A stretch of 64,000 bases of DNA from Solirubrobacterales bacterium (GCA_035473555.1 DATIOC010000043.1:73-64072), one strand, 5' to 3'. Counted from the first letter of the stretch, positions 60,182-63,462 are shown. Made by a program: numbers and translations. Notes: generated from the letters alone by a model not told the origin.

Positions 60182-62248
60182 ATGGCGGCCGAGGGGGCGG
60201 CACAGGAGCTTCTGAGGCAAGCGCTTGGCGATCGGGCCGAGTTCAGGCCTCAGCAAGCAGAGGCGATCGAGGCCCTGGTCGAGAGGCGGGCGCGGGTGCT
60301 GGTCGTGCAGCGCACCGGCTGGGGCAAGAGCGTCGTCTACTTCATCGCCACCCGGCTGCTGCGCCAGGAGGGGCTGGGACCGACGATTTTGATCAGTCCC
60401 CTCCTGTCGCTGATGCGCGACCAGATCGCGATGGCGGAGCGGCTCGGGGTCCGCGCGGTCTCGATCGACAGCACCAACGAAGAAGATTGGGACGAGATCG
60501 AAGCCGCCCTCTCGGAAGACTCGATCGACATCCTGCTCATCTCGCCCGAGCGCCTCGCCAACCGGCGCTTCCGAGAGCGAACCCTGAGCGCAATTCCCAA
60601 GGGCATCGGGCTGTTCGTCGTCGACGAGGCACACTGCATCTCCGACTGGGGTCATGACTTCCGCCCCGACTATCAGAGGATCCGCCAGATCACCGAGTAC
60701 CTGCCGACGGGCGTGGCCCTCCTCGCCACCACCGCAACGGCAAATGACCGCGTCGTCGCCGACATCGAGGGGCAGCTCGGACCGGACCTCGAGGTCCTAC
60801 GGGGTCCCTTGGCCAGAGACAGCCTGCACCTCCAGGTGTTCGAGCTGGACGAGCAGGCCGAACGGCTCGCCTGGCTGACGACGTATCTACAGTCGATCGA
60901 CGGCTCCGGAATCGTCTATGTCCTCACGATCCGCGATGCCCTGCGGGTCAGCGCCTGGCTGGAGCAGCAGGGTATCCAGGCTCCTGCGTATCACGGCAGT
61001 CTCGACCACGACGAGAGACTGCGCCTCGAGCGCGCTCTGCGGGCCAACGGGGTCAAGGCGCTGGTCGCCACGCTCGCGCTCGGCATGGGGTTCGACAAGC
61101 CTGACCTCTCCTTCGTCGTCCACTTCCAGCGCCCGAGCTCGGTCGTCACCTACTACCAGCAGATCGGCAGGGCGGGGCGCGCCCTCGACCGCGCCGACGT
61201 CGTCCTTCTGACCGGCCGCGAGGACGACGAGATCGCCGAGTACTTCATCGCCGACGCCTTTCCGCCCGAGTCGGTGATGCGCGACGTGGCTGGCGCAGTC
61301 GAGGCATCCGACGGGGTTACCGTGAAACACCTCGAAACCGTCGTCAACGCCAAGCACGGCGAGATCCACGACACGCTGACGCTCCTCGAGGTGGCGGGGG
61401 CGGTCGCGAAGGAGGACGGCGGCTGGATCCGAACCCCGAATAGGTGGGATTACGACCAGGGGCGGGTCGAGCAGGTGACGCAAACCCGCTACCACGAGCT
61501 CGCGAGGATGCAGGCCTACGCAGCTACCGAGGAATGCCTGATGCTATTCCTGACCGGCGAGCTGGACGACCCGAGTGACAGGCGCTGCGGGCGCTGTGCA
61601 AATTGCGGGGAGCCGTTCCTGCCGGTTGTCCCGGATCCCGATCTGGTGCGGGAGGCCGCCATCTTCCTCAAACGTGCGCATCGCCCGATCGAGCCGCGAA
61701 AACAGTGGCCGGCTCATCTAGGTGAGCGCCGCGGAAACATCCCGGAAGAGCACCGCTTGCAGGAGGGTCGAGCGCTTGCCATCTACGGAGACGCCGGCTG
61801 GGGCCGGGCGGTCAAAGAGGGGAAGACCGAGGGGTCCTTCTCGGACGACCTGGTCGCGGCGGTCGCGGAGATGATCGAGAACGACCTGCAGCCGGACCCC
61901 AGGCCAACCTGGGTAACCGCGATCCCCTCCCGCCGCGATCCCGGGCTGGTTCCGGGCTTTGCGCGACGGCTCGCGGACCGCCTTGAACTTCCATACCGGC
62001 AAGCCCTGGCGAAGACTCGAGATACCCCGCAGCAGAAGACGATGGAAAACAGCGTTCAGCAGGTCCGGAACGTGATCGGAGCCTTTGCCGTCGATTCGGC
62101 CGAGATAATGGACGGGCCAGTGCTCCTCGTCGACGACATGGTTGATTCACGTTGGTCGGTCACCGTCTGTGGCGTTGCCCTGCGAGAGGCGGGCAGCGGG
62201 CCCGTCTATCCGATCGCGCTGGGCGAGACGACGGCGGGTGGGAGCTGA
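60182..62248 (+). CDS. RecQ-family SF2 DNA helicase fused to a C-terminal ComF-like phosphoribosyltransferase-fold domain
   Basis: Walker A QRTGWGKS, DEAH box VVDEAHCISDWGHDFRPDY, motif VI YYQQIGRAGRA, and a Zn-like cluster RRCGRCANCGE. The C-terminal ~150 aa read ...WVTAIPSRRDPGLVPGFARRLADRLELPY...GPVLLVDDMVDSRWSVTVCG.... Confidence 0.85.
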   Translation: MAAEGAAQELLRQALGDRAEFRPQQAEAIEALVERRARVLVVQRTGWGKSVVYFIATRLLRQEGLGPTILISPLLSLMRDQIAMAERLGVRAVSIDSTNEEDWDEIEAALSEDSIDILLISPERLANRRFRERTLSAIPKGIGLFVVDEAHCISDWGHDFRPDYQRIRQITEYLPTGVALLATTATANDRVVADIEGQLGPDLEVLRGPLARDSLHLQVFELDEQAERLAWLTTYLQSIDGSGIVYVLTIRDALRVSAWLEQQGIQAPAYHGSLDHDERLRLERALRANGVKALVATLALGMGFDKPDLSFVVHFQRPSSVVTYYQQIGRAGRALDRADVVLLTGREDDEIAEYFIADAFPPESVMRDVAGAVEASDGVTVKHLETVVNAKHGEIHDTLTLLEVAGAVAKEDGGWIRTPNRWDYDQGRVEQVTQTRYHELARMQAYAATEECLMLFLTGELDDPSDRRCGRCANCGEPFLPVVPDPDLVREAAIFLKRAHRPIEPRKQWPAHLGERRGNIPEEHRLQEGRALAIYGDAGWGRAVKEGKTEGSFSDDLVAAVAEMIENDLQPDPRPTWVTAIPSRRDPGLVPGFARRLADRLELPYRQALAKTRDTPQQKTMENSVQQVRNVIGAFAVDSAEIMDGPVLLVDDMVDSRWSVTVCGVALREAGSGPVYPIALGETTAGGS

Positions 62249-63462
62249 TGGCGACGCTGCCGATCTCCGCCGACGGACAGGCGATCGCCCTCGCCTGCTC
62301 GTCCCTTGCCACCCAGGGCGACCGCAGCCTGAAGCCGTTGACGCCATCCGAATGGCGCAAGCTGGCCGGCGACCTTCATGCTGCCGAGCTGCGACCGCGG
62401 GACTTGATCGGGATGCCGCGGGACGAGATCAGAGACGCACTCGGATACTCGAGCGACGGCGCCGGCCGCCTTTCGAGCCTCCTGGGTCGTGGCGGACAAC
62501 TCGCGATCGAGTTGGAGCGCCTTGCCGGTCGCGGGATTTGGCTGCTGACCCGTGCCGACGAGGAGTACCCGCCGCTGTTGAGGAAGAGGCTTGGACCAAA
62601 AGCTCCACCGGTCCTTTTCGGTGCCGGCCCCCAGAGCTTGCTTCGCACTCCCGCGATTGCGATCGTCGGCTCACGCGACGTGTCCGAGGACGGGCTCGAA
62701 TTCTCGTCGGCCCTCGGCAGCCGCTGCGCGCAGGAGGGTTTCGCGGTCGTCTCGGGCGCTGCCCGGGGCGTCGACCTGACGGCGATGAACGGCGCCGTCT
62801 CACGCGGCGGCGTCGCGGTCGGCGTCACCGTCGATCCCCTGGAACGACTGGTGGGTCGCAAGGAGCTGCGCTCGGCGATCGCCGACGAGCTGCTCACCCT
62901 CGCCACGCCCTTCCATCCGGCCGCTCGCTGGCACGCGGGCAACGCGATGAGCCGAAACCGCCTCATCTACACGCTGGCGCAGGCGGCGGTGGTCGTCGCC
63001 AGCTCCCCGGAGAAGGGCGGGACCCGCTCGGGCGCCCTCGAGAACCTGAAGGCGGGCTGGGTGCCGCTCTTCGTGAGGGACGATGGCAGCCCCGGCAATC
63101 GGCAGCTGATCGCCGAGGGCGGATGGCCCTTGCCCGATTCGAATCCGAGCACCGTCGACGTGGCACGATTGACTGACGATCCGCGGCCCAACCTGCTCGC
63201 TTCGCCCACGCGTCCAGATCAGGGGGAGCCGGGCTCAGCCCAGGACACGGTGTTCGAGGCAGCATGGCCGATTCTCTCCCCATTCCTCAGCGAACCGCGA
63301 AAGGAGAAAGAGGTGGCCGAGAGGTTCGAGCTGGAGCTGACCCAAGCTCGAACCTGGCTCAAACGGGCCGTGGAAGAAGGCAGGCTAGAGGTGAAGAAGC
63401 GCCCCAAGCGCTACCTGCTGCCAGGCGCCTCGGCCGATCAGCTGCGAATCGACGGCGCCTAG
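62248..63462 (+). CDS. DprA/Smf-like (DNA-processing protein A family) protein with a C-terminal winged-helix-like tail
   Basis: ATG 62248 shares a base with the helicase TGA. ...PAIAIVGSRDVSEDG..., ...FAVVSGAARGVDLTAMNGA..., ...GNAMSRNRLIYTLA..., ...EKGGTRSGALENL.... The tail is ...ELTQARTWLKRAVEEGRLEVKKRPKRYLL. Confidence 0.8.
   Translation: MATLPISADGQAIALACSSLATQGDRSLKPLTPSEWRKLAGDLHAAELRPRDLIGMPRDEIRDALGYSSDGAGRLSSLLGRGGQLAIELERLAGRGIWLLTRADEEYPPLLRKRLGPKAPPVLFGAGPQSLLRTPAIAIVGSRDVSEDGLEFSSALGSRCAQEGFAVVSGAARGVDLTAMNGAVSRGGVAVGVTVDPLERLVGRKELRSAIADELLTLATPFHPAARWHAGNAMSRNRLIYTLAQAAVVVASSPEKGGTRSGALENLKAGWVPLFVRDDGSPGNRQLIAEGGWPLPDSNPSTVDVARLTDDPRPNLLASPTRPDQGEPGSAQDTVFEAAWPILSPFLSEPRKEKEVAERFELELTQARTWLKRAVEEGRLEVKKRPKRYLLPGASADQLRIDGA

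Follow-up and report, generated by a model that had tools for sequence, protein, structure and literature searches.

A probable psyrTA (rqlHI) toxin-antitoxin operon at a stable chromosomal site in an uncultured Solirubrobacterales bacterium

Introduction

The RqlH architecture was defined in Mycobacterium smegmatis, where a RecQ-like helicase was discovered in mycobacteria that have no classical RecQ (Ordonez, Unciuleac and Shuman, 2012; PMC3378886). The M. smegmatis protein, 691 residues long, comprises a RecQ-like ATPase, an RqlH-specific linker of about 90 residues, a tetracysteine zinc domain and a C-terminal domain resembling ComF and phosphoribosyltransferases (PRTases), with the HRDC domain absent. 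It is a DNA-dependent ATPase and a 3'-5' translocase and helicase, activities shown for that RqlH only, and both the K49A and the D148A substitution abolish its ATPase (PMC3378886). Here, a gene pair with this architecture is described from positions 60182-63462 of a 64,000-nucleotide stretch of DNA from a Solirubrobacterales bacterium (GCA_035473555.1, DATIOC010000043.1:73-64072), referred to as a whole as the window. The pair is very probably a psyrTA (= rqlHI) operon, a two-gene toxin-antitoxin (TA)-type module catalogued as an anti-phage defence system.

According to the papers that cite it, the 2013 study of Sberro described the pair as the psyrTA toxin-antitoxin system of P. syringae. 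The E. coli (F11) pair was subsequently described as RqlHI, of which PsyrT and PsyrA are the P. syringae orthologues (Russell and Mulvey, 2015; PMC4670107). E. coli RqlH is genotoxic without the downstream DprA-like protein RqlI, and this toxicity, seen as SOS induction, filamentation and growth arrest, requires the PRTase domain. RqlI, which is reported to carry a C-terminal helix-turn-helix (HTH), co-precipitates only with RqlH that retains the PRTase domain, and rqlH is invariably the upstream gene of the two, in many cases with an overlap into rqlI (PMC4670107). Toxicity of the toxin by itself, and its neutralisation and binding by the antitoxin, are known from both E. coli and P. syringae. 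PsyrTA (= RqlHI) was later counted, beside ShosTA, among the TA systems that protect against phage (Millman, 2022), and a DprA plus PRTase system from a P2 hotspot was linked to shosTA, syrTA and rqlHI (Rousset, 2022; PMC9122126). The last of these, which a preliminary description of the window made from its sequence had referred to as a P2/P4-hotspot module named DprA-PPRT, is real and corresponds to ShosTA, a short homologue of the present system; the kinship which that description proposed, of a defence or single-stranded DNA (ssDNA)-processing module related to DprA-PPRT, was correct.

Results

Identification of the gene pair

The two open reading frames (ORFs) of the pair lie on the plus strand, as do all of their features given below. 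The first, psyrT/rqlH (60182-62248), encodes a RecQ-like helicase of 688 residues fused to a PRTase-like toxin domain, and the second, psyrA/rqlI (62248-63462), encodes a DprA-like antitoxin of 404 residues counted from its ATG; the coordinates, motifs and one-base overlap given in the preliminary description were thus confirmed. PsyrT matched the PADLOC PsyrT model (PDLC03928) with an E-value of 1.1e-276, residues 5-685 aligning with profile positions 6-686 of 689, and PsyrA matched the PADLOC PsyrA model (PDLC03927) at 1.3e-110, residues 6-390 aligning with positions 3-395 of 398. The ShosA model was a distant second for PsyrA (4e-26, residues 88-265 only). End to end, PsyrT and PsyrA are 49% and 34% identical, respectively, to the RqlH/RqlI-like pair of an E. 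coli IncF plasmid. Family membership, as well as the folds, the intact catalytic motifs, the gene coupling and the conservation of the pair set out in the following sections, was observed directly at this locus and among its homologues.

The pair shares with PsyrTA/RqlHI its protein sizes (688/404 residues here against approximately 690-698/400 in E. coli), domain order, toxin-first gene order, overlapping stop and start codons, a DDxVDSxW motif in the phosphoribosyl pyrophosphate (PRPP) loop, a C-terminal winged HTH on the antitoxin and full-length matches to the PADLOC models. It differs in its host, an uncultured member of the Solirubrobacterales (Actinomycetota), whereas RqlI has been reported as almost always absent from Gram-positive bacteria (PMC4670107), and in its chromosomally fixed, syntenic location, in contrast to the defence-island or mobile-element location that is typical, not defining, of the system. 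RqlH of M. smegmatis (MSMEG_5935), from the same phylum, has the same layout and the same K49/D148 numbering; an RqlI partner was reported to be undetectable there (PMC4670107), whereas here psyrA is translationally coupled to the helicase gene.

A truly new, undescribed defence system had been put forward as a candidate for this locus, with the statement that no characterised system of a RecQ::PRTase fusion plus DprA was known. The public annotation, in which the two products go no further than 'RecQ family ATP-dependent DNA helicase' and 'DNA-processing protein DprA', and Pfam, which misses the PRTase domain at threshold, would give such a reading some footing. However, the dedicated PADLOC PsyrT and PsyrA models match at full length, the C-terminal domain recurs in 226 representative clusters at E <= 1e-30 (among 1.84 billion representatives), and the literature on the architecture spans 2012-2026, including RqlH in 2012, psyrTA in 2013, RqlHI in 2015 and anti-phage activity in 2022. 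The system is already known, and we give almost no credence to its being new.

The helicase and zinc module of PsyrT

The superfamily 2 (SF2) helicase core of PsyrT (residues 22-334, 60245-61183) was detected with the Pfam models DEAD (5e-23) and Helicase_C (4.5e-18). It carries GWGKS from residue 46 (motif I, K49), DEAH at residue 148 (motif II, D148), TATA at residue 184 and QQIGRAGR at residue 326, and both K49 and D148 are intact and near-invariant across phyla. The structure of E. coli RecQ (1oyw) matches residues 4-341 at 3.9e-56. From the end of the Helicase_C match at residue 334, a linker of approximately 95 residues leads to a RecQ-type tetracysteine zinc module (residues 430-475, 61469-61606; C452-x16-C469-x2-C472-x2-C475), which was detected with RecQ_Zn_bind at 25.0 bits, exactly the Pfam cut-off. 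Neither HRDC nor RQC was found in a Pfam scan of PsyrT at E <= 0.1, in keeping with the missing HRDC tail that had been noted by eye.

On profile models, PsyrT scored 244 bits against the RecQ-family model TIGR00614 (cut-off 219.8), 297.3 against the recQ equivalog TIGR01389 (cut-off 640.2) and 225.7 against the recQ model NF008279 (cut-off 1015). It resembles canonical RecQ in its helicase core and zinc module and departs from it in the absence of RQC and HRDC and in falling below the recQ equivalog cut-off; by these profile scores, PsyrT is classed as a RecQ-family helicase other than canonical RecQ. The features of the RqlH clade, namely a RecQ-like ATPase with motifs I, II, III and VI, a linker of about 90 residues, a tetracysteine module, the absence of HRDC and a PRTase-like C-terminal domain, are all present.

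The PRTase-like C-terminal domain

Evidence from sequence alone for a PRTase at the C-terminus of PsyrT was weak: the Pfam Pribosyltran match (residues 593-656, 61958-62149) reached 18.2 bits, below the cut-off of 26.3, and the phmmer matches of the domain to PDB sequences, PurF and PRPP synthetase, lay at E = 0.15-0.26. Therefore, the structure of residues 481-688 was predicted with AlphaFold2 (AF2) using 60 homologues, yielding a model with a predicted local distance difference test (pLDDT) score of 92.1. Foldseek matches of the C-domain model in the PDB were PurF (3e-5), APRT, PRPP synthetase, ComF and ShosT, and every listed match with a recognisable description belonged to the type I PRTases or their close relatives. 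The query-normalised TM-score (TMq) was 0.50 against H. pylori ComF (7p0h) and 0.50-0.52 against ShosT (8zvb/8zvd; 0.52 for 8zvb). The structure settled the fold, and the reading of the last part of the helicase as a ComF/type I PRTase, already made in the preliminary description, is confirmed on the predicted model; the domain occupies approximately residues 575-685 (61904-62236) and is the presumed toxic effector. Because the Pribosyltran match stays below threshold, standard annotation routinely misses the toxin domain and labels such proteins as plain RecQ helicases, and PF00156 was precomputed for only a handful of 120 listed homologues.

The PRPP loop had been described as degenerate, a view that did not survive comparison with the family. 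When 86 C-domains were aligned, all but one (85) taken from loci other than this one and spanning many phyla, the consensus L-V/I-D-D-x-V-D-S-x-W-T/S-x-T is near-invariant, and D651, D652, D655, S656, W658 and T661 of the signature LLVDDMVDSRWSVT (residues 648-661, 62123-62164) are conserved in 82-85 of the 86 sequences. As judged from this alignment, the loop has not decayed but is maintained by selection as a signature of the family. At this position LLVDDMVDSRWS of the window aligns with LLVDDIVDSGWT of the E. coli plasmid RqlH, D651-D652-M-V-D655 falling on the E. coli DDIVD, so that the acidic residues needed for toxicity there are present here. Mutation of DIVD/D663 abolishes the toxicity of E. 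coli RqlH (PMC4670107), and the loop of the window retains the acidic pair with which ShosT binds the PRPP ribose; in ShosT, the D331A/D332A substitution abolishes toxicity.

The DprA-like partner PsyrA

In the AF2 model of PsyrA (pLDDT 89.7), a helical domain at the N-terminus precedes a Rossmann core, and the C-terminus forms a unit of three helices and a hairpin. The core corresponds to a DprA/SLOG Rossmann-like domain (residues 94-291, 62527-63120; Pfam DNA_processg_A, 2e-36). A disordered linker (residues 319-330 of the AF2 model) leads to the C-terminal unit (residues 335-390, 63250-63417), which is predicted with the order H-H-H-E-E at a pLDDT of 90-96 and bears out the winged-helix-like tail that had been noted on this protein. 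The unit gave a weak Pfam match to EutK_C and aligns with the C-terminal helix-turn-helix of the E. coli homologue. The best Foldseek matches of PsyrA were DprA (3uqz, 1.2e-15) and ShosA (8zva, 4.8e-14, target-normalised TM-score (TMt) 0.71). PsyrA thus has the Rossmann fold of canonical DprA, unlike which it falls below the cut-off of the dprA equivalog TIGR00732 (95.5 vs 191.15); on NF008007 it scored 71.4 against a cut-off of 495.

With ShosTA (= DprA-PPRT of Rousset, 2022), the pair has in common a PRTase-dependent toxin, a DprA-like antitoxin and related folds. The two differ in that ShosT has an N-terminal pyrophosphatase-like hydrolase domain in place of the RecQ helicase and zinc module found here, in that ShosT and ShosA do not bind each other (a type IV TA system) whereas RqlH and RqlI co-immunoprecipitate, and in that the antitoxin of the window best matches the PsyrA model at full length, not ShosA.

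The domains of the pair are also analogous to ComFA, ComFC and DprA, and a compressed natural-transformation module could be envisaged in which a ComFA-like helicase, a ComFC-like PRTase and DprA process incoming ssDNA. The resemblance of the C-domain model to H. pylori ComF fits such a scheme, and the ComF analogy was also discussed by Russell and Mulvey (PMC4670107). However, the helicase belongs to the RecQ family (TIGR00614 and 1oyw matches above) and is not of ComFA type, the PRTase fold is fused to it where that of ComFC stands alone with a zinc finger, and PsyrA fits the PsyrA model far better than the dprA equivalog, of whose 191-bit cut-off it falls well short. Competence genes were not seen among the window genes examined, the large ones being those for a P-type ATPase, an ATP-grasp protein, a photolyase, a major facilitator superfamily (MFS) transporter, acetyl-CoA synthetase, PBP1 and AmtB, and E. 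coli, which is not competent, also has the family, with the behaviour of a TA pair. A role in transformation is therefore very improbable.

Gene junction and flanking sequences

At the junction of the two genes (62240-62250) the sequence includes GGGAGCTGATGGCG, and GGGAG stands just 5' of a TGATG overlap at 62246-62250, the psyrT stop codon TGA (62246-62248) sharing its last base with the psyrA ATG (62248-62250). An equally tight junction was seen again in five further loci (L001-L005), and by this layout psyrA is translationally coupled to psyrT. The operon promoter presumably lies within the 60-nt intergenic region 5' of psyrT (60122-60181), in which a scan for the sigma-70 consensus gave no match. 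The same region contains, 3' of the SHOCT stop codon, a GC-rich hairpin (60132-60151), but it folds no more stably than shuffled sequences do (z = -0.57). The terminator scan returned only minus-strand terminator-like matches within coding sequence.

At the 3' end of the pair, the stop codons of psyrA (TAG, 63460-63462) and of the convergent RibD_C gene (CTA on the plus strand, 63459-63461) overlap, and the two genes end face to face with zero intergenic space for a terminator. A truncation of the RibD_C gene was suspected and ruled out, as the gene continues past the end of the window.

Conservation of the pair across genomes

A scan with the C-domain over one genome per GTDB species yielded 80 loci from about a dozen phyla. 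A RecQ-type helicase region lies directly upstream of the C-domain in all 80, consistent with a fusion, and a PsyrA-like ORF lies directly downstream in 74 of the 76 loci with room for it, starting within 345 nt and mostly within 45 nt; the adjacency expected from the window therefore holds across genomes, including loci L001-L005. As the 80 loci were ranked by similarity to a partner-bearing helicase, the resulting pairing figure of 97% is a biased estimate. The identities of toxin and antitoxin to the proteins of the window are correlated across loci (rho 0.34-0.49), the antitoxin diverging faster (median identity 37% vs 51% for the toxin). A search of a phage collection with the C-domain returned zero copies.

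Two loci carry a solo RqlH gene, which is followed by a homocysteine S-methyltransferase gene in L059 (6374-7708) and by a PhyH dioxygenase gene in L077 (5241-7933). As RqlH exists in these loci without PsyrA, the helicase can have antitoxin-independent roles. Between the RqlH and PhyH genes of L077 lies approximately 1.1 kb without an ORF of at least 100 residues, a gap that might hold a decayed antitoxin gene.

Among the loci from Actinomycetota and Bacillota, a PsyrA-like gene directly follows RqlH in 10 of 11 (L006, L007, L016, L022, L031, L034, L047, L066, L072 and L076, with Mycobacterium colombiense among the paired hosts; the solo locus is L059). Russell and Mulvey (2015) had reported RqlH alone in 99.6% of Gram-positive bacteria (PMC4670107), and the present count suggests that the RqlI/PsyrA partner is commoner in Gram-positive phyla than was reported then. 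The mismatch may reflect strict orthologue criteria in the earlier study that missed divergent antitoxins, or a bias of the ranked sample used here.

Genomic context and inheritance

The assignment of the window to an uncultured Solirubrobacterales bacterium agrees with a 100% match to a protein of an NCBI metagenome-assembled genome. The neighbours named in the preliminary description, DUF6325, SHOCT and a convergent reductase, were confirmed, the reductase being the RibD_C gene. Relatives at 84% and 74% identity (L001 and L002) preserve the neighbourhood, with the gene order carboxyltransferase, cupredoxin, MMPL, glutamate-decarboxylase-like pyridoxal phosphate (PLP) enzyme, the pair, Lon and HxlR; the context on the downstream side was deduced from orthologous loci. 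The flanking proteins are 68-91% identical between relatives, which brackets the 74-85% of the pair itself.

The small genes beside the pair vary among these syntenic relatives (window positions 58516-60121 and 63459-64000 compared with L001 and L002). An MBL-fold hydrolase gene is present here and in L002 and absent from L001; the window shares DUF6325 and SHOCT with L001, their place in L002 being taken by DUF6529 and a small ORF; and RibD_C is present here and in L001 and absent from L002. The neighbourhood as a whole is conserved, but the spot occupied by the pair is prone to local indels.

The G+C content at third codon positions (GC3) is 0.833 for psyrT and 0.817 for psyrA, against a mean of 0.910 (standard deviation 0.044) for 48 other called genes, that is, about two standard deviations low. 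The lower G/C saturation perceived by eye in the preliminary description is therefore real; the horizontal acquisition that it was taken to hint at found no support, as the orthologous loci at 74-84% identity are syntenic. Recent transfer was rejected as the source of the low GC3: the PBP1, AmtB and MFS genes of the window, which are housekeeping genes, share a GC3 of 0.81-0.83, and the divergence of the pair matches that of its neighbours, so that its lower GC3 is no evidence of recent transfer. As called, the PBP1-type transglycosylase/transpeptidase ORF (42094-44754, minus strand) overlaps the ammonium transporter ORF (44336-45988, plus strand) by approximately 420 nt, and no window gene has a lower GC3 than these two (0.81-0.82); one or the other probably starts further in than called.

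A defence island within the window was considered and rejected. A PADLOC scan of 39 other window genes (positions 1-52000) returned matches to mad3 (2 genes, best 6.5e-32), mad8 (2 genes, 1.7e-13), AriA, Csa3 and JetC, which probably reflect generic domains of ATPases or regulators. Within the 64 kb of the window, neither recQ nor dprA was found in a second copy.

The expectation that the pair would be found in variable islands next to defence genes holds in other taxa and fails at this locus, with its housekeeping flanks. In L005 (13509-21975; GCA_963703205.1, 3.3-Mb contig), a PsyrTA homologue of 62% identity is located in a defence island, where it is directly followed by Hachiman (HamA and a DEAD helicase), an AbiGi protein and a phage-type integrase. 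Type I restriction-modification (RM), BREX PglZ, HamB, HmaB and type IIG RM proteins are among the flanking proteins sampled from 47 loci. On the E. coli IncFIA/IncFIC conjugative plasmid NZ_OX030731.1 (L086, 1203-11282), rqlH-rqlI lies between hsdM/hsdS and hsdR with all five genes on the same strand, a TA-type module nested inside a type I RM operon.

Discussion

By analogy with characterised homologues, PsyrT would act as a RecQ-like SF2 helicase whose PRTase-like domain is, on the published reading of those homologues, a PRPP-dependent genotoxic effector, and PsyrA as a DprA-like DNA-binding protein that binds and restrains the PRTase-bearing C-terminus of PsyrT. In the uninfected cell, PsyrA together with the helicase activity would keep the PRTase domain silent. 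Upon phage infection, ssDNA or replication intermediates may titrate PsyrA away, or PsyrA may be lost upon the shut-off of host synthesis, and the PRPP-dependent toxin activity then released could disturb nucleotide or DNA metabolism and stop the infected cell. Two triggers have been proposed for ShosTA: competition by phage ssDNA for the interaction between antitoxin and RecA, and decay of the antitoxin after host shut-off. Helicase polarity, toxicity, antitoxin binding and phage defence are carried over to this pair from homologues; the trigger, the PRTase substrate and a role against phage in this host are presumed.

Several observations weigh against assigning a defence function to the pair. 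It is flanked by housekeeping and metabolic genes, outside any defence island; its syntenic site and the similar divergence of its flanks indicate vertical inheritance, which also fits a stable physiological role; and solo helicases exist in L059 and L077. In addition, protection by PsyrTA of E. coli NILS69 could not be detected, either in the native host or in K-12, where the system caused a growth defect, and a defence function is therefore not to be assumed for every copy.

These points bear on an alternative in which the two proteins are a housekeeping repair and recombination pair, RqlH serving as a RecQ-type helicase, the DprA-like protein as a RecA mediator on the ssDNA produced, and the PRTase domain as a regulatory or partner-binding module, with no dedication to phage defence. 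Such a role would suit the fixed chromosomal site among housekeeping genes, the divergence in step with the flanks in Solirubrobacterales relatives, the fact that defence genes were not found near the pair in the window and the lack of protection by the native E. coli system; it would likewise suit the discovery of RqlH as the RecQ-like helicase of mycobacteria without classical RecQ, and the recombination-promoting activity of ShosA, a RecA-binding protein that is the short PsyrA homologue. We nevertheless consider it unlikely: the residues of the PRPP loop on which toxicity depends show strict conservation, the PRTase domain of the E. coli protein is genotoxic and its restraint is all that RqlI is required for, the pair lies in other taxa within islands of RM, BREX and Hachiman genes as well as on a conjugative plasmid, and a homologue has been shown by experiment to defend against phage. 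A related and rather unlikely scenario is that the Solirubrobacterales pair has been domesticated, being vertically inherited at a fixed site and working mainly as a RecQ-type helicase and RecA mediator, with the PRTase serving in normal physiology; the PRTase may in that case act on DNA or the nucleotide pool and not as an abortive-infection effector.

Identification as PsyrTA/RqlHI matters mostly as a correction, in that a cassette flagged as possibly new is the standard module that PADLOC or DefenseFinder would call automatically. Annotation names and the Pfam miss together hide the system, and its rediscovery by eye is consequently likely to recur. Beyond this, the antitoxin partner is apparently more widespread in Gram-positive phyla than the 2015 report gave it to be, and a family member from a high-GC actinobacterium, fixed at one chromosomal site, could help to separate the defence roles of the family from its roles in repair.

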